This document shows, piece after piece, positions 12 to 43,388 of a DNA stretch of 64,000 nt. A model generated the notes under the pieces. It worked only from the letters and a program-made list of their open reading frames with translations. It searched no databases and had not been told where the DNA came from. Source of the DNA: Escherichia phage vb_EcoM_bov9_1; sequence record MT884006.2; one strand, 5' to 3'. Positions within the stretch are counted from its first letter, which is position 1. Each line of letters begins with the position of its first letter. The translations under genes were made by a program, and so were the position numbers.

Positions 12-2189
12 TTAGGCCGCAAGGGCCTTCATAGTTTTAGCGATTTGGGAGACTTCATCATCGCTTAAAGAGCTGCGATAACCGATGAAGTCGGAAACAA
101 TACGGAATTTCTTGGTAAACTCAGCAACCATTTTATCACTGTTTTTTGAAGCATTATTTGATAATACATCAAAAAGATTAGTTACTGTCCAGATGTCATG
201 ACCGATGGTATCTTTTCCACCATTAAAATATACACCGCGCAATGAACTAACTATATTAGCGAGTCGTGTATATTCTTCAGAAACTTCATCGGTACTGAAG
301 TACTTCATCATAAAATCTAGTTCAGGATGCTTGATAATTTTATCAATATATCGTTGAGCTGAACTTGAATAACCTACATACTTATCATAATCTACATCAT
401 CAAAAGCATCTACATATAAATCACGCAAAGCTTCAAAAATACATTGGCACTGACCGAGTTCTTTTACCTTTTTCTGTAAAAGCGGACGAATAACATAAAA
501 TTCATTAATGCCAATAAGATTAGCCATACGAATCAAAATATTCATAGATGGATGACAAAGTGATGTAGTACCATCCATAGAGAAAATATCAGAACGATGC
601 ATGTATGCTACATAACCAGTAATTTCATCTGCTTCTGATGTGAGCGTAAATAATTCCTCTTTTTCCCAGCGCCCGTCTTTAATTTCAAACTTAAACGCTG
701 TGGCAGCTTTAGGACGAGGAGCTTTACTTTTAACTACCTTTGGAATATAGCTTTTAACTAAAGCTTCAATTTCTGACAAATAATGAATGTTAACTTCATC
801 ATTTTCAAACATTGCCATAATATCAGGAAGTAAATCAATCTGTGATTCTACTTCCGGATTAATAAACAGAAGACGCTCATTGTGATGAATATTTAAGGTG
901 TTATTAAATTCACTATCATCTAACGCACGTGCTAATCCACGGACAATATTGACACGATTTTTAATATTATCAATAACGATATTAATTTTTGTTGTATTAA
1001 TACCAAACAGACGATAACTTGATGCAACGGCTGAAGTTTCATGACTTTGCTTAATGCGTTTCAGTCGAGGGTCAAGATTTACTTCATACACAACTCCTGC
1101 ATTGCATAACTTACTGTCAGGTTCAAACATGCTCTGCATCTTTTTATATGACAGATTTTTAGTCGTGAATTTGACTGAATTACTAATCATATAATCTCGA
1201 GCAGAATATCCCATCTTCATCAATTCACGATATGTGTGACGAGGAGATGTAGATTCTTTAAATCGCTTTACATCTTCATTAAATGCTTTCTCACTGAGTT
1301 CTTTAACTCGTTCAATAATATTTTTACGAGTACGATCATCCAGTGAAAGAGCCTCACGAGATGGAGCAATATCAAGTGAACCCATTGGAAACTTAATGTA
1401 ATTCACTTCATTGCGAATGCTTAGCCAGTTACGGTCTCTAATAACACCATCGATAGGATAAACAATACCGCCATAGATAGCATATAATCCACCACGATCT
1501 GGCCAGTATCTTTCTGGATTTACACCGTAATAGTCATCAAAATCCGGAAAATAATCAATTTCGCGGTCAAGACCATTAATGATAGCCAAATCTTTGAACG
1601 GTCGCATGATATAAGAAACTTCATAAGCAAAGTTTCTAAAGTCTTTTTCTTCAACTGGAACTACGATTTCAATACCAGTTTTATCATCTGGACCCATTTC
1701 TTTTACGAATGTAGGTTTAATCTGTGGGCCATCACCATCCATGTAAGCTACATAACCACGAATTTCACCTTTATGATACGAAGTAATACTAAACGTATCA
1801 GTATAACTAAACGGAGATTTAGAACCTAAACCAAATCCGCCAATAAAGTCATTAGATTCGGCTTTAGATGAACTGAAGTATGAATTATACAACCCAGGAG
1901 AATTATCATCACCCTGAATATCAAAATCACTCATACCCGGACCAAAATCTCGACAAACAAATCGCGGATCTAATCGTCCTGGAACTTGAATGATAAATTT
2001 TTCAGGATTTCCATTGAGAGCATGGGCATCAATCATGTTGGTAATCAATTCACGGACTACTGCGCGAATCTTGTTTGTATACAAATCAGATGACAGAATT
2101 TTAAATACTTTAGGAGATGCTGTGATGCTAAATGCTTTTGATTTAGAACCATTACCAAGAATTGTTTCTTTTTCAGTGGTGATAATCAT
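12..2189 (-). CDS. rIIA: rIIA protein (membrane-associated; N-terminal GHKL-type ATPase-like fold)
   Basis: 725-aa ORF; N-terminal motifs [24 protein letters not shown] resemble the GHKL ATPase fold; length and position as first minus-strand gene match T4 rIIA. Confidence 0.9.
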
Positions 2190-2199
2190 AATTTCCTCA

Positions 2200-2403
2200 T
2201 TAATTCATATTACGCTTAATAACTTCAGCAACTTCTAGTAATTCATCTTTAGTTGCGGTGTCGGATTGAATTTTATCTCTAATATCTTTAAAGCGGTTTT
2301 TAAATTCTTCGGCTTCTCCCATATCGAAAAAGCGTTGAATGATTCTATATTCTCGATGAACTGCTTTATCAAAAAGTTCTAAATTTACTTTATATGATTT
2401 CAT
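2200..2403 (-). CDS. small acidic protein downstream of rIIA (rIIA.1-like)
   Basis: 67-aa ORF co-directional with rIIA, 10 nt gap; synteny with T4 rIIA.1. Confidence 0.55.
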
Positions 2404-2428: not shown

Positions 2429-2458
2429 ATTATACCACATCCTTGTGGTAAAGTAAAC
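2429..2458 (-). promoter_or_regulatory. T4-type early promoter (GTTTAC -35, TGgTATAAT extended -10 on minus strand)
   Basis: plus strand shows attatacca...gtaaac with about 18-nt spacer, i.e. reverse complement of the early promoter consensus; lies between gene 39 stop and the rIIA.1 start. Confidence 0.6.
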
Positions 2459-4278
2459 TACTGGCTCATCCATTCTTTACGAAGGTCAGCATTATCCCCC
2501 ATGAGCATTTCAAAAAGCTCTTTCCAGTTCTCAGGAAGTTTAACAACATCATATACTGGGTTTTGAATCATCTCACGATATTCAGATTTTTCCAAAGAGC
2601 CAAGTCCCTTAATATAACGGATGCTATGTTTAGGTAGAGCATCTTTGGCACTCTCATATTCAGCGACTGTATAAAACCATTCTTGTTTTTTACCGACCTG
2701 AGCGATGATTACAGGAGTTTTGACAAAACGAATTCGTCCTTGCTCAAACAATTCTGGCCAATTACTAAAAAATCCGAGCAGAGAAGGATAAATGCTTCCT
2801 AAACCATCATGGTCAGCATCGGTCATAATAGCAATATTATGATAATTCAAGTTTTCAGCTTTTTCACCAAGAACTAATCCAGTGATTGCGCAAATATCAA
2901 ATAGTTCTTTGTTTTTAAGCATATCAGCATATGACATACCCCAACTGTTGAGAACTTTACCACGCAATGGATAACCACCATGAAGTTCTTTATCACGAAC
3001 ATCAATAAGATATCCGATAGCAGAATCACCCTCGGTTAAGAACAATGTAGTATCAGCATCTTTACCACAAAGATTCGCTTTAATATGTTTATGAACCTTA
3101 GCTTTAGAAGCCTTTTTAGCTGCTTTAGTTTCTGCTGCTTTTTCTGCTGCCAATTTACGAGCCAAGGCAGCTTCAATAATCGGCATTAGAATTGCTTCAT
3201 TATTTAGAATAGCACGTGAAATCTTTTTAGCATCAAGCTGAATATGACTACGGATTTCACCAAATGGAGAAGTCAAACGCTCTTTAGTTTGAGAATCAAA
3301 TCGCATGTTTTTCATATCACGAACAAACATAACGATAGTCAAACATTCTTTAACGCGTGCTTTAGTTACATCAATTTTGAACTTACGTTTGATTTGTGGA
3401 ATAAGGTCTTCACAAATATCATCCATAACACAGTCAATGTGATGGCCACCATTCTTAGTATGAATGTTATTGACGTATGTTAATTGACGAAAACCATCCG
3501 GTGAACGACCAACCGCAATAGAACAATTTTCTTGTTCTTGAACGATAGCATGCTCATCATATTGGCGTGCATATTTCTTAAAATTGCCCTGAACCTTTTT
3601 ACCATTAAAGGTAAATTGAATATCAGGATAAACTACTGCAAGTGTCTGGAGACGATCTAGTGTAATGTCAAGATAAACTTGGGACAGCTCATTAGTTTCA
3701 AATGACATAAAATCAGGAATGAAAGTAACACGAGTTCCTTTCCATTTTCCAGGAATATCTTCCCATGATTTATTTTCCATGCCGTTTGAACAACGAACTA
3801 CAATATTATTTTGACCATCACCAGTTTCACCGACAAACATCACAGAAAAAATGTTTGTCAAACTAGAACCAACACCATTCATACCGCCAGTGACGCGTTC
3901 TTTATCATCACCAAAGTTACCACCTGCTTTTGGAATAGTCCATGCAGCAACAGGACCAGGAATTTCTTCACCGGTAGGTGTTTTAACCATTGCCTGCGGA
4001 ATACCACGACCGTTATCTTCAACTGTTACTTGATTGTTTTTAATAGTAACATTAATTTTATTTGCGAATTTAAACTTAGTACGAATACCTTCATCTACTG
4101 AGTTATCGATAATTTCATCAATAAGCTTAACAAGACCAGGTACATACTGAACACTTTCCCATTTACCAAACAGAAAGCGCTCATGCATTTCATTAGCTGA
4201 AGAGCCAATGTACATGCCGCTACGCTTTTTGATGTGTTCAATATCACTCAGAATTTTAATTTCATTCTTAATCATCAC
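2458..4278 (-). CDS. 39: DNA topoisomerase II large (ATPase) subunit, unsplit gp39 (contains the region that is separate gene 60 in T4)
   Basis: 606-aa ORF; GyrB/ParE-like GHKL ATPase motifs (IIDNSVDE, EDNGRGIP, GGMNGVGSS) followed by TOPRIM-like region (LFLTEGDSA); contiguous reading frame. Confidence 0.9.
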   Translation of the reverse strand: MMIKNEIKILSDIEHIKKRSGMYIGSSANEMHERFLFGKWESVQYVPGLVKLIDEIIDNSVDEGIRTKFKFANKINVTIKNNQVTVEDNGRGIPQAMVKTPTGEEIPGPVAAWTIPKAGGNFGDDKERVTGGMNGVGSSLTNIFSVMFVGETGDGQNNIVVRCSNGMENKSWEDIPGKWKGTRVTFIPDFMSFETNELSQVYLDITLDRLQTLAVVYPDIQFTFNGKKVQGNFKKYARQYDEHAIVQEQENCSIAVGRSPDGFRQLTYVNNIHTKNGGHHIDCVMDDICEDLIPQIKRKFKIDVTKARVKECLTIVMFVRDMKNMRFDSQTKERLTSPFGEIRSHIQLDAKKISRAILNNEAILMPIIEAALARKLAAEKAAETKAAKKASKAKVHKHIKANLCGKDADTTLFLTEGDSAIGYLIDVRDKELHGGYPLRGKVLNSWGMSYADMLKNKELFDICAITGLVLGEKAENLNYHNIAIMTDADHDGLGSIYPSLLGFFSNWPELFEQGRIRFVKTPVIIAQVGKKQEWFYTVAEYESAKDALPKHSIRYIKGLGSLEKSEYREMIQNPVYDVVKLPENWKELFEMLMGDNADLRKEWMSQ

Positions 4279-4321
4279 TTATCCTCGTTTGGTTTCGGGA
4301 ATATTATACTCCGGTAATCAT

Positions 4322-4345
4322 AAAGCTAAAGGCCCGAAGGCCTTT
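4322..4345 (-). terminator. intrinsic terminator hairpin (GGCC-UUCG-GGCC in RNA) with U-tract
   Basis: plus-strand aaaggcccgaaggcctttt immediately downstream of the stop of the 4345..4614 ORF. Confidence 0.5.
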
Positions 4346-4614
4346 TATTTAAAACGAATAGTTGAATCCTTAAAGAACAGCCCAGAACATACTGTTCCTT
4401 CTACTTTCTGCCCAGTAGGTCCAATAGCACGAAATCCAGTATGTTGGAAATCATTTTCAGAACAACCGAACCAATTATATCCAGTGATTTCAATATTAGT
4501 AAAACCACCTGAAGACAAAACTTTGGTTGCATTATCAGCATCAGTACATCCTACTAAAGACACTGCTAATACTAATGCTGCAATAGAACGATTAATATAT
4601 TTCATAATTTTCAC
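4345..4614 (-). CDS. predicted lipoprotein (signal peptide plus lipobox LVGC)
   Basis: 89-aa ORF, N-terminus MKIMKYINRSIAALVLAVSLVGC typical of lipoprotein signal peptide. Confidence 0.55.
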   Translation of the reverse strand: MKIMKYINRSIAALVLAVSLVGCTDADNATKVLSSGGFTNIEITGYNWFGCSENDFQHTGFRAIGPTGQKVEGTVCSGLFFKDSTIRFK

Positions 4615-4982
4615 TTAAATTTAATGGCTTGAAGAAGACTAATAATTCTCAAGCGACTTCTTTCATCTTTAACTGTAAAAGAAAGAGGGTCACCAGATTT
4701 CATAGTAATAGTACATTCAAAATCAAAATCTTCGGAAACTTCTTTGAAGAAGTCAAATTCTTCATCATAAATTAGAACATTACTCTGACAACTATGAAGA
4801 ATTTTTCCATCATTTCCAGATGCTGTACTAATCATTGTAACATTATGACCTTTCATATCTTCAACGATAAATTCACTAGTCAATATTACAGCATTAATAG
4901 AACTATTCCTATTACTAGCAGAAAGTAGATATTTCTGTTCTTCACCTTCACGAATGCAATATTTCTTACCGATTTTAAACAT
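4611..4982 (-). CDS. hypothetical protein
   Basis: 123-aa ORF in co-directional array, 4-nt overlap with the downstream gene. Confidence 0.5.
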   Translation of the reverse strand: MFKIGKKYCIREGEEQKYLLSASNRNSSINAVILTSEFIVEDMKGHNVTMISTASGNDGKILHSCQSNVLIYDEEFDFFKEVSEDFDFECTITMKSGDPLSFTVKDERSRLRIISLLQAIKFK

Positions 4983-4984
4983 AA

Positions 4985-5161
4985 TTACCCTTTAAGTAAG
5001 TCGTAAAAACCACCATTCACATGCTTAGGAGCAGAAGGCCGACGAGTAGACAAATGATGACATTTAGGGCAAACATCATTTTCTCGTTCAGAAATCTTTT
5101 TAATTTTTTCATATTCATGCCCGCAATCTTCGGATTGGCATTTATAATCATACATTGGCAT
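4985..5161 (-). CDS. small zinc-ribbon protein (CxxC...CxxC)
   Basis: 58-aa ORF not in the supplied track (below the size cutoff): MPMYDYKCQSEDCGHEYEKIKKISERENDVCPKCHH...; fills the gap between flanking genes; coordinates hand-derived. Confidence 0.4.
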   Translation of the reverse strand: MPMYDYKCQSEDCGHEYEKIKKISERENDVCPKCHHLSTRRPSAPKHVNGGFYDLLKG

Positions 5162-5163
5162 AA

Positions 5164-5583
5164 TTATTCCTTAAAGTGTGCTTTCAGCATTTGATACAAG
5201 GACCATGCCTGTTCATTATTTTCAATAGTAACTTTCATGACAGGAAATTCTGTGAAATCTTCTATTTGTTCTTGCTCTTCCTGCTCTTGTTCTTCAGCTG
5301 CCTGGTATGGATTTTCCACTTCATCAAAGAATTCAGCTTCGCTAGTAGAAAGCCAAATAAAATCTTCATCCAAAATATCTTTACCGTAGGATAATGCCAA
5401 TCTTCCAGTAGATGTCACAATTTTAGTAGGACGACCAAGATAGTCAATATCTATAACTTTAAAAGGTTCCATACCTAAACGTCGTGCATAAATTCCGTTT
5501 TCAGTATGGTCTTTAATAAAAGCTTCTTGAGCTTGTTTATTTTTAAATTGATACCATTTATTAACTTCAAATTTAATAGCCAT
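5164..5583 (-). CDS. hypothetical protein with acidic [10 protein letters not shown] linker (position and size compatible with T4 goF)
   Basis: 139-aa ORF; assignment by size and synteny only. Confidence 0.5.
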
Positions 5584-5798
5584 TAATAAATTTCCTTCCA
5601 GTAAGTTGTTCCATCTTCAGTAATTTCACGAAATACACCATAAATTGGTTGTTTATCACCAACCTTTTCATACACATAAACCGAAGTCAAGTGAGTAAAC
5701 TTGATGGTGTGTTCCTTTTGAACTACTACCAAATCTGGATTGAATAATACATCTTCAAATTCGTCATTAGTGCAGTTCTGAACAATTTTACGTTTCAT
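5583..5798 (-). CDS. hypothetical protein (size and position compatible with T4 cef)
   Basis: 71-aa ORF, stop/start overlap with the upstream gene. Confidence 0.45.
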
Positions 5799-5811: not shown

Positions 5812-6093
5812 TTAATTGAACAGTGGAGCGATGCGTTTCAGAAGAGTAGCAGCACCTTTAGCGAATTTTACATCATGAAAAACAGTTTCTTCTTCCGTTA
5901 CAACACGAGCTTTAATGTTTTCACAATCCCAATTTTTGCGAACAATCTTCAAAAGCTGCAGTAAATCTTTACATTCAGCAATATCGATAACACATCCACG
6001 AGAATCTTCCATTATCGCACGATAACCGTAAGCCATACCATAATCGTTGAAAGATTGCTCGATGATAATTAAGTTTTCCATTTTATTCTCCAA
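5812..6093 (-). CDS. hypothetical protein (N-terminus MENKMEN shared with two other genes in the window)
   Basis: 93-aa ORF preceded by the repeated leader cassette. Confidence 0.5.
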   Translation of the reverse strand: MENKMENLIIIEQSFNDYGMAYGYRAIMEDSRGCVIDIAECKDLLQLLKIVRKNWDCENIKARVVTEEETVFHDVKFAKGAATLLKRIAPLFN

Positions 6094-15208: not shown

Positions 15209-15445
15209 TTAACCACCTATTTCTGTAGGCGTAAACATTGCAGCATTCTTAGTTTTCCAAGTTGCTGCATCGGAAACTACATCAGAATAAGCTGCTTTTT
15301 CTGACGGAAAGATTTGATAATGAGAATCTGCAATACGGTGTTCATTTGAATATACATCAAATGCTACAGAAACTTCCATACCTTTAACTTCTTTGCCTTC
15401 ACCTGCTGGATGAGTAAAGGTCTTGATGTTAACGAAACCACCCAT
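15209..15445 (-). CDS. soc: small outer capsid protein Soc (RB69-like variant)
   Basis: 78-aa ORF; YVNIKTF...VSVAF...HYQ-FPSEKAAYS signature of Soc; closer to my recollection of RB69 Soc than of T4 Soc. Confidence 0.8.
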   Translation of the reverse strand: MGGFVNIKTFTHPAGEGKEVKGMEVSVAFDVYSNEHRIADSHYQIFPSEKAAYSDVVSDAATWKTKNAAMFTPTEIGG

Positions 15446-15476
15446 AATAAACTCCTTTATTGTTTAATTACAGGTG

Positions 15477-15484
15477 TATTTATA
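15477..15484 (-). promoter_or_regulatory. late promoter TATAAATA for soc
   Basis: plus-strand tatttata (minus strand TATAAATA) about 30 nt upstream of the soc start. Confidence 0.5.
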
Positions 15485-15486
15485 AC

Positions 15487-15627
15487 TTACAATTTAGCGG
15501 CTTTCCAGAGTTGTTCAATAATCTCTTGGTCTATTTCTTTAGTTATTTCATTACGTAATAAAGCAGTAAGGGCTTTCGCCCTTTTCTTATTCAACTTTTT
15601 GAGTTGGCGTTTATTTAAACGGGACAT
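15487..15627 (-). CDS. small basic hypothetical protein
   Basis: 46-aa ORF not in the track; start overlaps the gene 56 stop (TAATG); coordinates hand-derived. Confidence 0.3.
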   Translation of the reverse strand: MSRLNKRQLKKLNKKRAKALTALLRNEITKEIDQEIIEQLWKAAKL

Positions 15628-16145
15628 TAATAACCTCGGTCTTGACGTGCGAAATTTTCAGCATTTTTCAGATAATAAAGTTTAAAGATTTCTTCTGCTG
15701 TAAGACCAAGACCCTGGAACATATTCAGAACGAAATGAAGAATATCAATCATTTCAAATTTAATTTCTAACTGGTCTTGTGGAGACAAATCAGTAATCAG
15801 AGTTTCACGACGTTCACCATGCTGCGACTTCCAAGGTTTCCATACAGCAGATGCGTCTTTTTCACCATTACTCATACCACCAAGAGAAGTCAGAAGTTCA
15901 CGGAATTCATCGTCAATATAATCTTTCTGATTACGCAACCAATCAACAACTTCACCGGCAGTAGCTAAGTCATCAGGATGACGATTATATTCAGGTTTAT
16001 CTTTAGCTAAACGAACCTGCAAAGATTTCTGCATATCAAGCATTACCTGCAGCGGGTCTTTTTCATCGCCGAGAATATCCCAATATTCATTTTGAGCTTT
16101 ATCAGCGCCTTCAATCAGTTGTGAACATTCGTTAAAGTAAGCCAT
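15627..16145 (-). CDS. 56: dCTP/dCDP pyrophosphatase gp56 (MazG-like)
   Basis: track ORF 15627..16238; start set at internal MAYFNECSQ to give about 172 aa, matching T4 gp56; MazG-like EExxE-type acidic motifs. Confidence 0.8.
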   Translation of the reverse strand: MAYFNECSQLIEGADKAQNEYWDILGDEKDPLQVMLDMQKSLQVRLAKDKPEYNRHPDDLATAGEVVDWLRNQKDYIDDEFRELLTSLGGMSNGEKDASAVWKPWKSQHGERRETLITDLSPQDQLEIKFEMIDILHFVLNMFQGLGLTAEEIFKLYYLKNAENFARQDRGY

Positions 16146-16216
16146 TATTTTTCCTTTCAATTCATGGGTTAGTAGATTAATTATACAATAAATATATAAA
16201 GCAATAAGGAGGACAT

Positions 16217-21268: not shown

Positions 21269-22424
21269 TTAACTGTTCGAGGTCAGTTTCTAAATCAGCA
21301 GCTGATTTACTTTTACTTTCTGGAGATTTAAATTTTTCAACCTTTGAGTTAATCAATTCATCAACTTCAGCTTCAACAATTTCATTGCTATCAATAGCAC
21401 CTAACTGATAAGCACGTTTAATAGCATCTCGGAATGGTTGATGCTTAAATAAAGGACCCCAGAATGTAGTGCAGTTGGTATCTTTTGCACGCCAAGATTT
21501 TTCTTCGCGAATCATCTCACCGGTTTCTTCATCAAGAAATTCACGAGCATACCAACCGTTCTTAGGTTTTACCACGAATCCTAATTCTAGAGCCATATCT
21601 AACAATCCAGAATAAGGATCGATACCACCATCAAATTTAACATCAATAAAGAATTTACTTTTTTCTTTAACGGTACGAGATTTTTCTACATTTAGAACAA
21701 ATTGATACCCCTGAAGATCAGAACCATCTTTAATCTGGCGTTTACCGATAATGAATACGGTATCAGCCGAATACATTACGCCTGTACCACCTGTCATCAC
21801 GGTTTTACTAAACATTTCAATTGTTTCAATTGTATGGTTAACCGCAACACATGGAATATTTTTAATGCTAAAATAAGGAGTAACAATACGGAATAATGAC
21901 TTCAGTGATTTAGCACGAGTCATATCTGCCACAGATTTTTCATTCAAGGCATCTTCCGTTTCTTTCTTAGAAGCCATATTACCAATTGAATCGATGAATA
22001 CAATAACCTTTTCACCACGCTCAATAGCTTCAAGCTGATTCACCATATCAATTTTCAGCTGTTCAACTGACTGGATTGGTGTATGAATTACTCGTTCCGG
22101 GTCAACTCCCATGGATCGCAAATAAGCTGGAGTAATACCAAATTCGCTATCATAGAATAGACAAACCGCGTCAGGATATTTGTTCAAATATGCCGCAACC
22201 ATAGTCAAAGACATATTTGATTTAAAGTGTTTAGAAGGCCCTGCGAAAATAGTTAAACCAGACTGCATACCGCCATCAATCGCACCAGAAATAGCAATAT
22301 TAAGCATTGGGATTTTTGTACGAATTACATCCTTTTCATTAAAGAATTTAGATGTAGTCAGTTCAGCAGTCATTTTAGAAGTGGAAGCTTTAATCAAACG
22401 GGATTTTAAATCTGCAATAGACAT
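21243..22424 (-). CDS. uvsX: UvsX recombinase (RecA family)
   Basis: 393-aa ORF; Walker A GPSKHFKS, RecA-like core; sequence recognisably UvsX. Confidence 0.95.
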   Translation of the reverse strand: MSIADLKSRLIKASTSKMTAELTTSKFFNEKDVIRTKIPMLNIAISGAIDGGMQSGLTIFAGPSKHFKSNMSLTMVAAYLNKYPDAVCLFYDSEFGITPAYLRSMGVDPERVIHTPIQSVEQLKIDMVNQLEAIERGEKVIVFIDSIGNMASKKETEDALNEKSVADMTRAKSLKSLFRIVTPYFSIKNIPCVAVNHTIETIEMFSKTVMTGGTGVMYSADTVFIIGKRQIKDGSDLQGYQFVLNVEKSRTVKEKSKFFIDVKFDGGIDPYSGLLDMALELGFVVKPKNGWYAREFLDEETGEMIREEKSWRAKDTNCTTFWGPLFKHQPFRDAIKRAYQLGAIDSNEIVEAEVDELINSKVEKFKSPESKSKSAADLETDLEQLSDMEEFNE

Positions 22425-22501
22425 TCATTTTTTCCATAGGCATCATTATATTTTCCTCACTGGTTAAAGATAGAGTAATTATAACACAATAAATTTAGGC
22501 A

Positions 22502-23350
22502 TTAATCAACTGCTATCGGATGAATAGCATTAAACTTATGAAATGCTTCTGATTTTTCTTTACGAGAAACACACATGCGAAGAACCTTTAATGGCTCGTC
22601 TTCTTCACCCAACGATTTTCGTTTTTCAATATTAGAAGTTTTCCAACGAGCTTGCTCTGGAAACTCTCTATTGATTTGCTCAAGCGCTCTATTATGTTTA
22701 GAATTACTACGAATTGAACTGCACCCGCCAGGAGCTTGTGCTTTTCCAGATACAACCAGATATTTGAACAAGGCCAAATGCGGATAACCTTGATTAATTA
22801 AATTGAGAAATGCATACATATCTTCACATAAATCAATTTTTCCATACCCAATTTGTTCTGTCGTAAGTTTTCCGAGGTCATACCATGTATTCGTGAATCC
22901 ATATGAATTTTCACGATAATTACCCCAAGATGAAGTAATTTTAAAAATAGGTAGACGAGCATGGCCATGATAATACCCACAATCCATGGCATCCTCAACA
23001 TATTGAATCAATTCATAGAACTGTTCACGAGTCAATTGATTGACTTTATCCACACAACGACGATCATCTCTTTTTCGCATTGAACTCATACGAATAGTAG
23101 TATCATCGTCAATCATCCAGATTCGTTGACCTGCATACATGTCAGTAATTGCTTTACGAGTACCGGCAATTCCGTTTACATCATCAGGAATAGTTATAAT
23201 TTTAGCTCTAGACCCATAGGCATCATAATAAGCTTTTTCTTCGTGTTCACGCACTACAATATGTGGTTCATAATCAGTCGGAAACATATCAAGGGCAGAA
23301 ACTGCCCCTACACGTTGATAGCTTGGAATTACGAATTGAATCATTTCCAC
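22502..23350 (-). CDS. putative glycosyltransferase with DxD motif at the beta-gt locus (not T4 beta-gt)
   Basis: 282-aa ORF between uvsX and 42; WMIDDDTTIR motif suggests a GT-A-type sugar transferase; no resemblance to my recollection of T4 beta-glucosyltransferase. Confidence 0.5.
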   Translation of the reverse strand: MEMIQFVIPSYQRVGAVSALDMFPTDYEPHIVVREHEEKAYYDAYGSRAKIITIPDDVNGIAGTRKAITDMYAGQRIWMIDDDTTIRMSSMRKRDDRRCVDKVNQLTREQFYELIQYVEDAMDCGYYHGHARLPIFKITSSWGNYRENSYGFTNTWYDLGKLTTEQIGYGKIDLCEDMYAFLNLINQGYPHLALFKYLVVSGKAQAPGGCSSIRSNSKHNRALEQINREFPEQARWKTSNIEKRKSLGEEDEPLKVLRMCVSRKEKSEAFHKFNAIHPIAVD

Positions 23351-24081
23351 TCACCGTTATAATCTTTTTTCACAATATGAGTTTCGCCAGTATTCCACCA
23401 ATGATCAACCAAGTAAAAATGACGAGAATATACATGAAGACTTCCAACATTCCATATAATAGAACCTGCTTTATACTGACGAGTTGAATCGCCTGCATTC
23501 AAATCAGATACTAATTTATCTAATACGTATTTTTGCCATGCATAATCATTACGGAATCCGAAGACCACGTCATTTGAGCGCATGCTTACTACTGCATTGA
23601 CTTTCTTATCACGAATCAGGTACTGTACTGTATTAGTACACATGAAATCTGACATACCATCTTTATTGTAGTCAAATTGCATGGATGGACGAGTATAAAT
23701 CATGATACCACGTCGAGAATCAGGATTTTGACCAAGTTCAGCTAAACACATATCATACTGAGCATAGTTATCTTCTGACCAGATAGCCCAACCGTAATTC
23801 GAGTTAATTTCACCTTTAGAAGATGCTACTTGTTGCCAAATCTTCGGTGTTTCACCCGGAATATCTTTAACGAACAAGCTCTTAGATTTATACCATTCAA
23901 GTTCACGCTGAATGTATTCATCATTAAGAGCGCCAAAAATAAACGGTTCATCTGCTACAAATGATGCGCCAATAATTTCAATAGTTTTAACACCAGTTTT
24001 ATCAACTACGAAATCTTTTTCTTTTAATGCAAGCCCCAAATGAAGACGGATTTCTTCAACTGTCATAGAGTCACTAATCAT
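23341..24081 (-). CDS. 42: dCMP hydroxymethylase gp42
   Basis: 246-aa ORF; thymidylate-synthase-like fold motifs; size equals T4 gp42. Confidence 0.9.
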   Translation of the reverse strand: MISDSMTVEEIRLHLGLALKEKDFVVDKTGVKTIEIIGASFVADEPFIFGALNDEYIQRELEWYKSKSLFVKDIPGETPKIWQQVASSKGEINSNYGWAIWSEDNYAQYDMCLAELGQNPDSRRGIMIYTRPSMQFDYNKDGMSDFMCTNTVQYLIRDKKVNAVVSMRSNDVVFGFRNDYAWQKYVLDKLVSDLNAGDSTRQYKAGSIIWNVGSLHVYSRHFYLVDHWWNTGETHIVKKDYNGEWK

Positions 24082-30026: not shown

Positions 30027-30713
30027 TTAAAAATCGTGGGTAGAATCAGCTTCAAGAGCTACTACATAATTCGCGTGTTCACCTTCAAATTTAGCAGCAC
30101 CTTGTTTACCTTTTGCCCAGAGCAGAAGTTTATAATTTCCTGGTTGCATTTTCATATTTGCCATATTGATAATGAAATTAAATGTATTTTCACCATCATA
30201 ATCACCAAGAGTCAAAGAATATTTAACACGGGTCAAAGCAGAATCTTCTACTTTATTAAAACCGTTAATTACGATTTTACCTTCTTTTACCGTGATAGCA
30301 ATTGTATCAATTTGCAGACCACGAGATACACGCAACAGTTGTTGAAGGTCTTCAGCTTTAATTTCAGTAACAACAGATGCTATCGGGAATGGAATTGGTT
30401 TATTAGGAGCAACTACTGTACTCGGATCGGCTGCTGGCCAAAAAATTGTTGAACGAGCATCAGCAATTTTAATATTTCCATCTTCTGACTGGGAAATTTC
30501 TGCATCATCATTAACTAGAGACAGAATACCAAGAAAACCGTTCAAATCGTAAATTGCTACATCAAAATCAATAACGTCAGAAATATTTGCTTCCGCATAA
30601 GTTGTACCATTAACTGCGCGAGTCATAATAAATTGACCGGATTTAAGCATAATACCGGAGTTAATAGTAGCGAAATTTTTCAAAATATTCAGTGTGTCTT
30701 TAGATAATTTCAT
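30027..30713 (-). CDS. 45: sliding clamp gp45
   Basis: 228-aa ORF; size and position match T4 gp45. Confidence 0.9.
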   Translation of the reverse strand: MKLSKDTLNILKNFATINSGIMLKSGQFIMTRAVNGTTYAEANISDVIDFDVAIYDLNGFLGILSLVNDDAEISQSEDGNIKIADARSTIFWPAADPSTVVAPNKPIPFPIASVVTEIKAEDLQQLLRVSRGLQIDTIAITVKEGKIVINGFNKVEDSALTRVKYSLTLGDYDGENTFNFIINMANMKMQPGNYKLLLWAKGKQGAAKFEGEHANYVVALEADSTHDF

Positions 30714-31597
30714 TTCAATTTCCTATTTACGTAATAGTTAGACCAGGACCGTACAGCACCCTGATAAGATTCGTCGTTAAACCCATTAGCTACTGCAATT
30801 TTACGAAATTTATTATAACTCGGTTTTCCGTAAGCATGCCATAAAGATTTTAATTCATCTTCATGTTCAATCCAAGTTCCTCTAGCTTTAGATTTTCTAA
30901 ATTTTGATTTGAATTCCGGTAAATTATTTCTAACAGTTGCTTGAATTGAAGCTCTCTGTCTTCTTTCAGCATTATTCCATAATTCTTTTTGAGATTTAGA
31001 AATTTTTGATCTTACACTTTCTGAACTCATTATATCACTAAACTTTTTAGCATAACTACAATCAAGATATTTCAATTTCATCTTATTTGAAAGTTTAAGC
31101 TTTTTCTCATCGGTCCAGTGATTCTTCATTGAATTAGATATTTTGTATTTTACGTCAGAACTATGTTTGTAACCTTTACGAATACCAACATAATCGGGCG
31201 TAATTTCAGATTGCGAAAGCTTTACAATTTTTCCAGTTAAAACATTTTTATATGTTCCATATCCTTTAGCGCCAATTAAAGTATTTTCATCTGCGTATGC
31301 TTTATTAAAATATTTTATATTACTTTTTGCTTTAACTTTTAATTGAAAAAATCTTTCCAATTTTCTTGGATCTAATATAGTTTCAGCTAAAATTTTGACG
31401 GTGTATTTAGTGGTTTTAATAAGCTCAAAATATTCATCACTATAACTCGATGACACGCTTCCAGTATAAATCTTTCCAGCTGAATCAATTATATTTGTTC
31501 CATCGAAAATTGCGTTAATTTTTGAACCTATATAATAACACGGAAAAATATTTTTAGCTTCCCGCTCTGGAAAGCTAATAAGATATACTAAATTCAT
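30710..31597 (-). CDS. Seg-like GIY-YIG homing endonuclease (free-standing)
   Basis: 295-aa ORF; N-terminus [22 protein letters not shown] resembles the GIY...YIG motif pair of Seg/I-TevI enzymes; Lys-rich C-terminal half with repeated short basic modules; inserted between 45 and rpbA. Confidence 0.55.
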
Positions 31598-31983
31598 TTA
31601 TTAAACTCGGCCGCAATTGTTTCCGCAACAATTTGAGCAGCAACAATTAGACGTTCATCTGCGTTACCGCAATAATCATCTTCAAGGCGTTCACCACATG
31701 AAGTCATAATAAATTTAGCACCGGCGTTTAGGGATTCTGCAGTATGTTTGCGCATTAGTTCAATCCATTTATTACTTACTTCACGATCGATAGCTTCATA
31801 ATACGCATGACGAGCAGGTGCAGATTTAATTTTGTTCTGAATAACTTCCATTGCGTTATCAGAAAGAGACAAAACCCATGCTCGACGAATTTTATTTTGG
31901 TTTTGTGGATTTGATTCAGAACGCACGTGTTTTGGCTGAATATCTTTTACATCAACAGTATAATTCACAGTAATTTTAGTCAT
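31594..31983 (-). CDS. rpbA: RNA polymerase binding protein RpbA
   Basis: 129-aa ORF; size and position match T4 rpbA. Confidence 0.75.
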
Positions 31984-35561: not shown

Positions 35562-36761
35562 TTTTGTAATAATGTCAAACTGTTCTTTAAAGCAGAAGCT
35601 TGAATCTTGATGCTGATACAAAAATTCATACGCTTTTTCTCGCTCACGGTCATAAAGAGCTCGGTCAGATGACAGTTCTTTAATACGTTCAAACGTTGAT
35701 TCCATATCATTTTCATCAAACCAAACGATACCGCTATCATGCGAGGTCAAAGGAGTATTATCAACACGGAATTTTAAATTTTCGCCAGTAGATTTCCAGA
35801 AAACAGGAATTGTTCCACATGCACCAAGCTCGAGATGAGTATATTCTAAAGAACGTTGTAGATATTTTTTATCCAACTTACTCAACTGATAACCAAAACC
35901 GGATTTACTCATACGTTCAAGCATTTCGCTATTTACATAACGGTCAAGAATTTGCGTTGGCAAATTAGGAGCAATTTTAATTTGGTCTACTTGATGAAGA
36001 CGATAATACTCGTATGGAATTCCTTTTTCTTTAATAGGAATGAACGCTGGAGAACGTTCCAGACCTTCCATAATAGTACTTAGTCCTGCAGGTTTAAGAT
36101 GTTTTTCATGAAAATCAAACATCTGATAAAAACCTTTCCATGTAGTCGTACGACCAATCCAACGGTTGATATTCATGTTAATTTCAGAAACATCTTTCCA
36201 GTAGGTTGACCGAACCTTCGCAATATCCATAGGAGGCTGAAAGTTATATACCGTCGGTGCTTCTTCAATATCATCAAACAGAGAAACAGTTTCTGGATAC
36301 CACTCTTTCATCAGAACTTTATTAAAATCACCATTATCAGAATGGCTAAAAATAACATCAGCTCGACGAACAGTTTCTTCTAATCCCAAATTTCGACGCA
36401 AAGAAAGAGAAGAATGGTCATGTTGATAAACTACAACACGAACAGAAGGTTTAATGTTATCAATAATTTTTTTATAGTTATTAATAGTGTCTTCTTCAAC
36501 TGAAGTAGCAGGAACTGAATTGATAATTAGAATATCACAATCATTTACCAGCTTAAGTGTTTTATCGTATTCTTTTGCCAATAAAACCGGAATTGAAAAT
36601 GATTTATAATCATGTGCACAGTTACGTGTAAATGATTTATCTTTAGCATAAACCAAAGTTACTTCATGACCATTTTTAATAAACCAATCACGTTGCTCAA
36701 GAGAAAATTTAGTTACACCACAACCTTCAAGACCTCGAGCCATAAAAATACATACTTTCAT
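35559..36761 (-). CDS. a-gt: DNA alpha-glucosyltransferase
   Basis: 400-aa ORF; N-terminus CIFMARGLEGCGVTKFSLEQRDWFIKNGHEVTLVYAKDKSF recognisable as T4 AGT; size identical. Confidence 0.9.
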   Translation of the reverse strand: MKVCIFMARGLEGCGVTKFSLEQRDWFIKNGHEVTLVYAKDKSFTRNCAHDYKSFSIPVLLAKEYDKTLKLVNDCDILIINSVPATSVEEDTINNYKKIIDNIKPSVRVVVYQHDHSSLSLRRNLGLEETVRRADVIFSHSDNGDFNKVLMKEWYPETVSLFDDIEEAPTVYNFQPPMDIAKVRSTYWKDVSEINMNINRWIGRTTTWKGFYQMFDFHEKHLKPAGLSTIMEGLERSPAFIPIKEKGIPYEYYRLHQVDQIKIAPNLPTQILDRYVNSEMLERMSKSGFGYQLSKLDKKYLQRSLEYTHLELGACGTIPVFWKSTGENLKFRVDNTPLTSHDSGIVWFDENDMESTFERIKELSSDRALYDREREKAYEFLYQHQDSSFCFKEQFDIITK

Positions 36762-36810
36762 TTAATATCCTCATTGTTTTGGTTTATTTTACCAAAAATT
36801 TATAAAGCAA

Positions 36811-41103: not shown

Positions 41104-41574
41104 TTAATCATGTTTCCACACCCCATCGGTATTTGACCAAAGTCGCTGATTATCTGATCCTCGCCACAGCTTTTTAGTCGGAAGATTTTTCTCATACTTC
41201 CCATCAATAATAACATCAACATATTTAAGCATTTCTAGTTGTTTAATATCTTCAAACTTATATCCTGTCCACAACCAAATGCTTTTATTGGGATAAAGAT
41301 TTTTTACTGTTTGAACCACAGAGTGAATCACGTCTCTGTTATCAGGATAAAGAGGGTCACCTCCGGTTATAGTTAATCCTTCTATATAATCATTATTCAA
41401 ACATTCAATTAATTGTTCTAGTGTTTCACCAGTGAATGGAATACCATTTCTAGCATTCCATGTTGATTTATTATAACACCCTTCGCATTTATGCAAACAA
41501 CCTGTAACGAAAAGAACGACCCTGCATCCAGGGCCATTCACAAAATCGCAAGGATAAAATCTATCATAATTCAT
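41104..41574 (-). CDS. nrdG: anaerobic ribonucleotide reductase activating protein NrdG (radical SAM)
   Basis: 156-aa ORF; CxxxCxxC cluster (CLHKCEGC); size matches T4 NrdG. Confidence 0.9.
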   Translation of the reverse strand: MNYDRFYPCDFVNGPGCRVVLFVTGCLHKCEGCYNKSTWNARNGIPFTGETLEQLIECLNNDYIEGLTITGGDPLYPDNRDVIHSVVQTVKNLYPNKSIWLWTGYKFEDIKQLEMLKYVDVIIDGKYEKNLPTKKLWRGSDNQRLWSNTDGVWKHD

Positions 41575-43388
41575 TGGTGTTTAACCCTATGCATGATTTC
41601 TTTATTTTTACCGAGATTAAATCCGCGTTCGTTCGGATTTCCCAAATAACCACATGTTCTTCTTATTGTGTTCATCTTTTTAGGATCAGTTTCTCCACAA
41701 ATAGAACAAACAAATCCGTTTTCAGTAGGAGTCATTTCATGGGTACTTCCACATGTAAAACATTTATCTACTGGCATATTAACACCAAAATAATCTAAAT
41801 GTTGTGCAGCATAATCCCATACGGCCTCAAGGCCTTTCAAGTTATTTTTCATATCAGGAAGTTCAACATAAGAAATGTGACCACCTGTCGCAATGAAATG
41901 ATATGGCGCTTCACGAGAAATCTTTTCAAACGGAGTAATATTTTCTTCTACTGAAACGTGGAAACTGTTAGTGTACCAGCCTTTATCGGTAACATCTTTT
42001 ACACTTCCATATCTTTCTGTATCAAGTTTACAGAAGCGATAACAAAGGTTTTCAGCAGGAGTAGAATACAAACTAAAAGCAAACCCAGTTCTTTCAGTCC
42101 ACTGTTTAAGACGAGCATTCATTTTAGTTAAAATTTCTCGTCCAATATCACGACCGACAAGAATATTCAATTCGTGAATACCAATGTATCCTAGAGACAC
42201 TGAACTTCTGCCATTTTTAAATAACTCAATTATATCGTCATCAGGTTTAAGACGAACCCCGAATGCACCTTCTTGGTAAAGAATAGGAGCAACAGTTGCT
42301 TTAACTCCTTTTAAGGAACTAATTCTACACATCAAAGCTTCAAAACACAAATCCATTCGCTCATTGAACAATTCGATAAATTTCTGTTCATTGAACTGTG
42401 TTCCAATATAAGAATCTAATGCGATACGAGGAAGATTCAGTGTTACAACACCGAGATTATTACGTCCATCAAGAATTTCATTACCGGTTGAATCTTTCCA
42501 CACACTCAAAAAACTGCGGCAACCCATTGGAGAAACAGGAATAGATGAGCCGGTGATAGCTTTATTGTTCTTAGCTGAAATAATATCAGGATACATTCTT
42601 TTGCTTGCGCACTCTAAAGCAAGCTGTTTAATATCATAGTTCGGATCGTCTTTATAAAGATTAACACCTTCTTCAACAAACATAACAAGCTTAGGGAAAA
42701 TAGGAGTTATCCCATCACGACCAAGACCTTTAATACGATTTTTCAGAATTGCTTTCTGAATCATTCGTTCAGTCCAGTCAGTTCCTGTACCAAATGTAAT
42801 TGTTACAAAAGGTGTTTGTCCGTTTGAACTAAAGAGAGTATTTACTTCATATTCATAAGCTTGGAATGCATCGTATACGTCTTTTTCTGTTTTAGACTGG
42901 GCATAATTCAACGCATCAGTGATTTGCCATTTTTCTGCATCCTCAATATGTTTTGCATAGGTGCGTTTAACATAAGGAGAAAGTACTTTATCTACATTCG
43001 CAAAAGTCGTTCCGCCATATTGATGGGAAGCAACCTGTGCAGTAATTTGCGCCATAATTGCAGTAGCAACTCCAATTGATTTAGGAGTTTCAATCTGTGC
43101 ATTACCTAGCTTAAATCCGTTTTCAAGCATTCCTTTTAAATCTACTAAACAACAATTAGTAAATGGAAGAGCAGGGGAATAATCAATATCGTGGAAATGG
43201 ATAATTCCGCTTTCATGCGCTTTCATAATAAAAGACGGGACCATATTTTTGGCAATGTGTTTAGACACAATACCAGCCATAAGGTCCCGTTGAGTTGGAA
43301 AAACACGAGAATCTTTATTAGCATTCTCGTTTAAAAGGTCTTTATTAGTTTTATGAATCAATCCTTCAATTTCTTTTTCAATTGTCAT
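41571..43388 (-). CDS. nrdD: anaerobic ribonucleoside-triphosphate reductase NrdD (glycyl radical enzyme), uninterrupted
   Basis: 605-aa ORF; C-terminal zinc ribbon CFTCGS...CSICG and glycyl radical motif RTCGYLG; continuous frame, no intron. Confidence 0.93.
   Translation of the reverse strand: MTIEKEIEGLIHKTNKDLLNENANKDSRVFPTQRDLMAGIVSKHIAKNMVPSFIMKAHESGIIHFHDIDYSPALPFTNCCLVDLKGMLENGFKLGNAQIETPKSIGVATAIMAQITAQVASHQYGGTTFANVDKVLSPYVKRTYAKHIEDAEKWQITDALNYAQSKTEKDVYDAFQAYEYEVNTLFSSNGQTPFVTITFGTGTDWTERMIQKAILKNRIKGLGRDGITPIFPKLVMFVEEGVNLYKDDPNYDIKQLALECASKRMYPDIISAKNNKAITGSSIPVSPMGCRSFLSVWKDSTGNEILDGRNNLGVVTLNLPRIALDSYIGTQFNEQKFIELFNERMDLCFEALMCRISSLKGVKATVAPILYQEGAFGVRLKPDDDIIELFKNGRSSVSLGYIGIHELNILVGRDIGREILTKMNARLKQWTERTGFAFSLYSTPAENLCYRFCKLDTERYGSVKDVTDKGWYTNSFHVSVEENITPFEKISREAPYHFIATGGHISYVELPDMKNNLKGLEAVWDYAAQHLDYFGVNMPVDKCFTCGSTHEMTPTENGFVCSICGETDPKKMNTIRRTCGYLGNPNERGFNLGKNKEIMHRVKHQ

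Follow-up and report, generated by a model that had tools for sequence, protein, structure and literature searches.

The 64,000-nt stretch of Escherichia phage vb_EcoM_bov9_1 DNA analysed here (MT884006.2, hereafter the window) carries on its minus strand, at 2458..4275, what we take with a probability of about 0.97 to be a Tequatrovirus gene 39 free of interruption, which encodes a GyrB-like topoisomerase large subunit and represents the parental allele without the MobA element. In the literature this form is named the "parental" Topo2L allele, the target of MobA (bioRxiv 10.1101/2022.08.31.505936). The unsplit gene is already known, as it is annotated in GenBank and the structure has been solved for a protein only two residues away, that of phage T6. 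An earlier note, made from the letters of the window, had proposed that this phage carries the unsplit arrangement, and the proposal was borne out by the continuous open reading frame (ORF), by the alignment with T4 and by the absence of the element from the 64 kb. No finding spoke against the identification of the gene. The features of the locus are collected in Table 1.

Table 1. Features of the gene 39 locus, in positions of the 64,000-nt window.
Feature	Position	Strand	Basis and remarks
Unsplit gene 39 ("60plus39") for the large subunit of topoisomerase II	2458..4275	-	ORF, GenBank, Pfam, PHROGs; 605 aa + stop
Codons 1-473, counterpart of the topoisomerase portion of T4 gene 39	2857..4275	-	blastp; DNA colinear with T4 3911-5328, 96.4%
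"Parental" segment replaced by the MobA element in T4, codons 474-494	2794..2856	-	gap between homology blocks, 39/60 nt identical to homR; by T2 homology contains the MobA recognition/nick region and is thus an empty homing site
Codons 492-605 + stop, counterpart of T4 gene 60 codons 47-160 (post-landing)	2458..2802	-	blastp; DNA colinear, 97.9%
TOPRIM catalytic-Glu motif EGDSA, aa 415-419	3019..3033	-	motif position; on gp39 in T4
TOPRIM metal-binding motif DADHDG, aa 486-491	2803..2820	-	motif position; last codon GGT 2803-2805
In-frame GTG	4276..4278	-	directly upstream of the ATG; opens the mechanical 606-aa ORF
Shine-Dalgarno-like GAGGA for gene 39	4282..4286	-	read from sequence
Promoter-like TTTACT-17-TG-TATAAT	2429..2457	-	directly after the stop codon of gene 39, upstream of rIIA.1; no more than a consensus match

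The ORF listing gave a single frame at 2458..4278 on the minus strand, counted as 606 aa from a GTG, and a chance origin of this frame is far excluded because some 600 codons stay open in DNA of 36% G+C. The codon right after the GTG is an ATG (at 4275), from which the protein is 605 aa long. The GAGGA lies 6 nt from the ATG versus 3 nt from the GTG, and the corresponding CDS of Escherichia phage vb_EcoM_bov10K1 (QOC56993.1 in MT884007.2) is annotated as 2458..4275 with 605 aa, the length also of gp39 in T2 and T6. The sequence thus points to the ATG at 4275 as the most likely start of gene 39, with a product of 605 aa. The GTG at 4278 was disfavored as a start by the Shine-Dalgarno spacing and by the 605-aa length of the T2 and T6 homologs. 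The earlier note had described one continuous ORF of 606 aa; its continuity was confirmed, and its length is to be revised to a likely 605 aa from the ATG in view of the GenBank annotation, the T2 and T6 proteins and the GAGGA spacing. As the note had also stated, the frame runs to the region upstream of rIIA.1: its stop is located 54 nt ahead of rIIA.1 (2200..2403), which is followed on the same strand by rIIA (12..2189), both at coordinates matching those in T4. Promoter-like sites in this region did not exceed in number what was expected from shuffled sequence.

Two side observations concern the annotation of the neighboring genes. MT884007.2 gives rIIA.1 (67 aa, 2200-2403, minus strand) the name "rIIA lysis inhibitor", as it does for the 725-aa rIIA, which is probably an annotation carry-over. 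On the other side of gene 39, the homolog of 39.1 (4345-4605, minus strand) encodes 86-89 aa with a lipoprotein-like signal (…LAVSLVGC…), and T4 39.1 is annotated with 65 aa (5398..5595); the difference suggests either another choice of start or a truncation in T4.

Domain searches of the 605-aa protein revealed a GHKL ATPase at the N-terminus (Pfam HATPase_c, residues 48-150; score 38.3 bits, cutoff 26.4) with a GMNGVG motif at residues 131-136, a transducer domain (DNA_gyraseB, PF00204, residues 251-385, 51.1 bits, cutoff 27) and TOPRIM_C (Pfam, residues 520-605, 30.6 bits, cutoff 29). The motifs EGDSA and DADHDG share one frame, so the whole TOPRIM domain is on a single chain. Over residues 1-605 the protein matched phrog_543, "DNA topoisomerase II large subunit", with an E-value of 2e-295. 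In the PDB search the top match was the cryo-EM chain of T6 gp39, 8ylu_C, which aligned end to end (1-605, 1385 bits); the second was 8yo3, an artificially fused T4 gp39-gp60 construct, and eukaryotic Topo II and ParE/GyrB came after. Cryo-EM structures of T6 gp39 include 8ylu, 8yo1 and others.

The topoisomerase of T2 and T6 consists of two subunits, and the T6 enzyme relaxes DNA in an ATP-dependent manner (PMC11461880). By homology with the T6 enzyme, the 605-aa protein would serve as the GyrB-like component in a type IIA topoisomerase made of two subunits in an A2B2 arrangement; we infer both the activity and the subunit stoichiometry from the near-identical T2 and T6 proteins. MT884007.2 contains a 442-aa CDS (160665..161993) annotated as "DNA topoisomerase" in the gene 52 neighborhood (ac, ndd), which on the basis of annotation and position is taken to be the GyrA-like partner gp52. 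The large subunit and gp52 would then assemble into the A2B2 heterotetramer known from the solved T6 structure, and this complex would carry out ATP-dependent strand passage while the phage DNA replicates. Because one uninterrupted ORF supplies the ATPase, the transducer and the entire TOPRIM, neither subunit reassembly nor recoding is needed, and translation is conventional, since without the element there is nothing to bypass.

In the blastp comparison with T4, residues 1-473 of gp39 aligned with residues 1-473 of the 605-aa protein (466/473 identical, 99%), and residues 27-160 of gp60, with the bypass spliced out, aligned with residues 472-605 (128/134 identical, 96%). The ORF therefore spans T4 gene 39 plus gene 60, as the earlier note had claimed, and the homology of the C-terminus to gp60, which the note had named as the point on which its reading depended, is evident from the latter figure. 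The extent of this homology had been overestimated at about 160 C-terminal residues; only ~132 are homologous to gp60, from about residue 27/31 of gp60 to residue 160, because the first ~30 aa of gp60, like the last 43 aa of T4 gp39, derive from the insertion and lack a counterpart here.

At the DNA level, the window is colinear with T4 from position 1 to 2793 at 97.9% identity and with equal coordinates, and again from 2858 to 4607, corresponding to T4 3911-5661, at 96.4%. The gap between these blocks amounts to 64 nt in the window (2794-2857) versus 1117 nt in T4, so that T4 carries 1053 extra nt including the 50-nt cassette, in line with the note's description of a T4 locus split by an insertion and with a 50-nt bypass in gene 60. 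The 5′ break is located directly after Ala473, where the identity with T4 gene 39 ends. The 3′ break is located 9 nt beyond the T4 landing codon, where T4 reads TTA GGT TCT whereas the window, T2 and T6 read TTA/CTA GGA AGC. Codons 472-491 share 39/60 nt with codons 27-46 of T4 gene 60, and the differences, which are in the conserved IAIMTDADHDG, are mostly synonymous. The lengths add up on both sides: 473 + 2 (E474 and N475) + 16 (the homR equivalent) + 114 = 605 residues here, and in T4 473 + 43 = 516 for gp39 and 30 + 16 + 114 = 160 for gp60.

The MobA element has been described as an insert of 1097-1106 nt that comprises a C-terminal extension (CTE) of ~44 aa, an N-terminal extension (NTE) of ~30 unique residues and a re-coded "homR" of ~16 aa whose identity to the parental sequence is 67-81%; the insert takes the place of a 64-nt parental segment, which is deleted, the T4 clade has 9 nt more of homR past the cassette, and parental Topo2L alleles are 96-99% identical (bioRxiv 10.1101/2022.08.31.505936). 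The differences between the window and T4 match this published anatomy. The mobA insertion divides the T4 gene (PMC2988022), and the element cuts the T4 TOPRIM apart, leaving the Glu on one side and the DxD site on the other, the added tails being thought to aid assembly (PMC11461880; bioRxiv 10.1101/2022.08.31.505936). Gene 39 of the window would accordingly represent the allele that the ~1.1-kb element did not invade, and in T4 and ~9% of its relatives the element separates the EGDSA glutamate from the DxDxD metal site.

Searches of the whole 64-kb window supported this reading. The 50-nt T4 cassette gave no match with up to 3 mismatches allowed; tblastn with the intact MobA of HY01 (272 aa) and with the T4 60.1/mobA fragments returned a best E-value of 0.11; and neither the gp39 CTE nor the gp60 NTE had a match under E = 2. 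With the whole element as query in a word-7 blastn, the sole match was that of homR to the target at 2804-2849 (76% over 46 nt). The site itself is in frame (GAT GGT TTA GGA AGC), and the protein continues from A473 to E474 without a gap. The GGT at 2803-2805 is the counterpart of the T4 take-off codon GGA (Gly46), immediately 3′ of which the T4 cassette is located, and no remnant of take-off, stop or landing was found there, the codon being GGT rather than GGA and followed by TTA GGA AGC. The claim that gene 60, the bypass and an intervening endonuclease are lacking thus agrees with the negative searches for the cassette, MobA, CTE and NTE in the 64 kb, and the inspection for take-off and landing codons that had been suggested along with it pointed the same way.

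A continuous frame could also result from secondary re-fusion, in which a gene once split by the MobA element was rejoined after the endonuclease and the cassette had been lost. MobA elements are indeed lost stepwise, and one clade of Campylobacter phages has fused ORFs of secondary origin, but the reported fused or decayed cases keep their CTE and NTE tails (bioRxiv 10.1101/2022.08.31.505936), and none was detected here by tblastn. The protein moreover has exactly the length of its T2 and T6 counterparts, with 1-2 substitutions, and the 63-nt target segment is of the parental type (39/60 nt identical to the homR of the element). The lack of CTE and NTE residues, together with a length that matches T2 and T6 exactly, leads us to regard re-fusion as extremely improbable.

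The locus (2601 nt) is 100% identical to that of vb_EcoM_bov10K1 (MT884007.2), and ~98% identical over 2.6 kb to those of many other T-even phages; the records of RB14 and RB32 name the fused gene explicitly "60plus39". Phage vb_EcoM_bov10K1 is a Tequatrovirus that originated from a Hungarian cattle farm. The prevalence of the two states was determined with a 251-nt query across both junctions, a record being taken as uninterrupted when one place covered at least 80% of the query. Among the 499 phage records matched, 454 (~91%) were uninterrupted, and exactly 43 surplus places were obtained, which are the split sites; a separate count found the T4-type element in 43 records (T4 isolates, RB55, RB59, HY01, vB_EcoM_112 and others). 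A 2.6-kb query with the same one-place coverage of at least 80% was unfit to tell split from unsplit genomes because pieces ~1.1 kb apart get joined. The unsplit gene is therefore the majority and ancestral state, and T4 is the exception; the arrangement is not a feature peculiar to this phage. As the default condition of a gene that has been studied well, it is of value mainly as context, and it corrects the bias that comes with T4 as the reference, given that the split gene and its 50-nt ribosomal hop occur in only ~9% of sequenced relatives.

These records also bear on the idea that a T4-type insert is present in the phage and was collapsed during assembly or lost in annotation. Nothing specific speaks for such an artefact; 454 independent records share the uninterrupted junction, the junction sequence is of the parental type and not T4 sequence with a deletion, and T2 and T6 have the same frame and the same protein length, which leaves this explanation with next to no probability.

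More room, albeit still little, is left for a precise replacement, in which the element was present in an ancestor until, during a mixed infection, the parental sequence was brought back without a scar by recombination with an unsplit allele. T-even phages recombine freely. The insertions seem to be of recent evolutionary origin, and loss of the element has been suggested to balance its spread (bioRxiv 10.1101/2022.08.31.505936). On the other hand, such an event is traceless by construction and looks the same as a gene that was never invaded, the identity of the flanks to T4 is an ordinary 96-98% and no T4-like co-conversion tract is obvious in them, and the identity and function of the gene as read here would stay as they are. 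We consider this history improbable, and an uninvaded parental gene 39 remains our preferred reading.

The form of the element itself varies among the records. In T4 (NC_000866 2803-3910) it measures 1108 nt and contains the mobA pseudogene in pieces (60.1 + mobA), and T4T, RB55, RB59 and several records labeled "T4" have a 1097-nt element, 98.6% identical, in which an intact homing endonuclease is annotated. This agrees with the reported pseudogenization of MobA in the laboratory T4 strain (bioRxiv 10.1101/2022.08.31.505936).

If gene 39 is the parental allele, the phage may be an uninvaded potential recipient of the MobA/bypass mobile cassette. In what the same preprint says of T2, MobA nicks the parental allele in the homR-equivalent region, ~20 nt upstream of the cassette position, and the nicking of this allele and its conversion in mixed infection are credited to Bonocora et al. 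2011 (via bioRxiv 10.1101/2022.08.31.505936). It is the cassette, and not the homR polymorphisms, that shields element-bearing DNA (bioRxiv 10.1101/2022.08.31.505936). Across codons ~466-494 the window gene has sequence of the parental type, like the T2 allele nicked in experiments. Its codons 462-500 specify the same amino acids as in T2 and T6, and within nt 1380-1520 the gene departs from T2 at 4 nt, two of which, both synonymous, are at most 40 nt from the insertion point (nt 1455, ACC versus ACT, codon 485; nt 1474, TTA versus CTA, codon 492). Because the site is nearly identical to that of T2, we infer that in a coinfection with a MobA+ phage this one should act as the recipient of MobA homing; in view of the two synonymous differences near the insertion point, this sensitivity is likely but not certain. 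It seems very unlikely to us that ACC at codon 485 and TTA at codon 492 impair the allele as a substrate of MobA and so give an "empty site" variant with natural resistance, though if true this could help to explain the rarity of the element.

Several other differences from T4 were observed in the 64-kb window. Gene 45 (30027..30713) and rpbA (31594..31983) enclose a 295-aa ORF (30710-31597, minus strand), in an interval that measures just 51 nt in T4. The ORF matches the PHROGs "homing endonuclease" families phrog_655 (E 3e-32) and phrog_7504 (E 5e-18), and a YYIGS motif is located close to its N-terminus; no Pfam match was obtained at threshold. The motif and the PHROG matches suggest an endonuclease of a different type, and the ORF is a candidate free-standing homing endonuclease of the GIY-YIG/seg type, so that a phage without MobA has a different candidate of this kind. 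For mobB, mobC, I-TevII, segF and segA of T4, no homolog was found in the 64-kb window. The mobB site (36750-36776) and the mobC site (about 41554-41574) are compact gaps, of 27 nt versus 864 nt in T4 and of −21 versus 601 nt, respectively; nrdD is intron-less here, as judged from the 2 nt at the I-TevII intron site (42851-42852) versus 1035 nt in T4; and the segF (15216-16205) and segA (22413-23358) regions have shorter, divergent sequence instead. Between 39.1 and 39.2, the window has a 372-nt insertion relative to T4 (4608-4979) with an ORF at 4611..4982 (minus strand) of 123 aa, which belongs to phrog_622 (unknown function), shows weak similarity to a goF-type family and is also present in T6, annotated there as similar to RB32ORF005c/RB69ORF005c. 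Between cef and motB, ~200 nt at 5874-6073 are absent from T4; they fall inside a 93-aa ORF (5812..6093, minus strand), annotated as a hypothetical protein of 89 aa.

Compared with known systems, the locus is closest to those of the T-even phages with an unsplit gene. T2 gene 39 (AP018813.1, 2447..4264) and T6 gene 39 (MH550421.1, 2447..4264) both encode 605 aa, the former differing at one residue (F70L; 67/1818 nt) and the latter at two (D173T and Q526H; 49/1818 nt); in both phages the gene is equally placed between 39.1 and rIIA.1, and the TOPRIM is uninterrupted. RB14 and RB32 have the same gene and arrangement, with ~98% DNA identity across the 2.6-kb locus and no difference of substance. 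In T4 (NC_000866 2458..5328) the flanking gene order is as here and protein identity in the topoisomerase parts is 96-99%, whereas the parental residues E474 and N475 are missing and several parts are found in T4 but not in the window: the 43-aa CTE of gp39, the ~30-aa NTE of gp60, the mobA pseudogene (annotated as 60.1 + mobA), the homR of 16 re-coded codons and the 50-nt cassette, which has the take-off GGA/UAG on one side and the landing GGA on the other. On a wider scale, the domain order GHKL ATPase, transducer, TOPRIM of the phage protein recurs in GyrB/ParE of bacteria and, within the N-terminal half, in eukaryotic Topo II, and human TOP2A/B, yeast Top2 and ParE gave significant full-length alignments with E-values of 1e-47 to 1e-59. 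In comparison with these enzymes the phage protein is compact and the similarity distant, and its partner, by homology, would be gp52 instead of GyrA or ParC.
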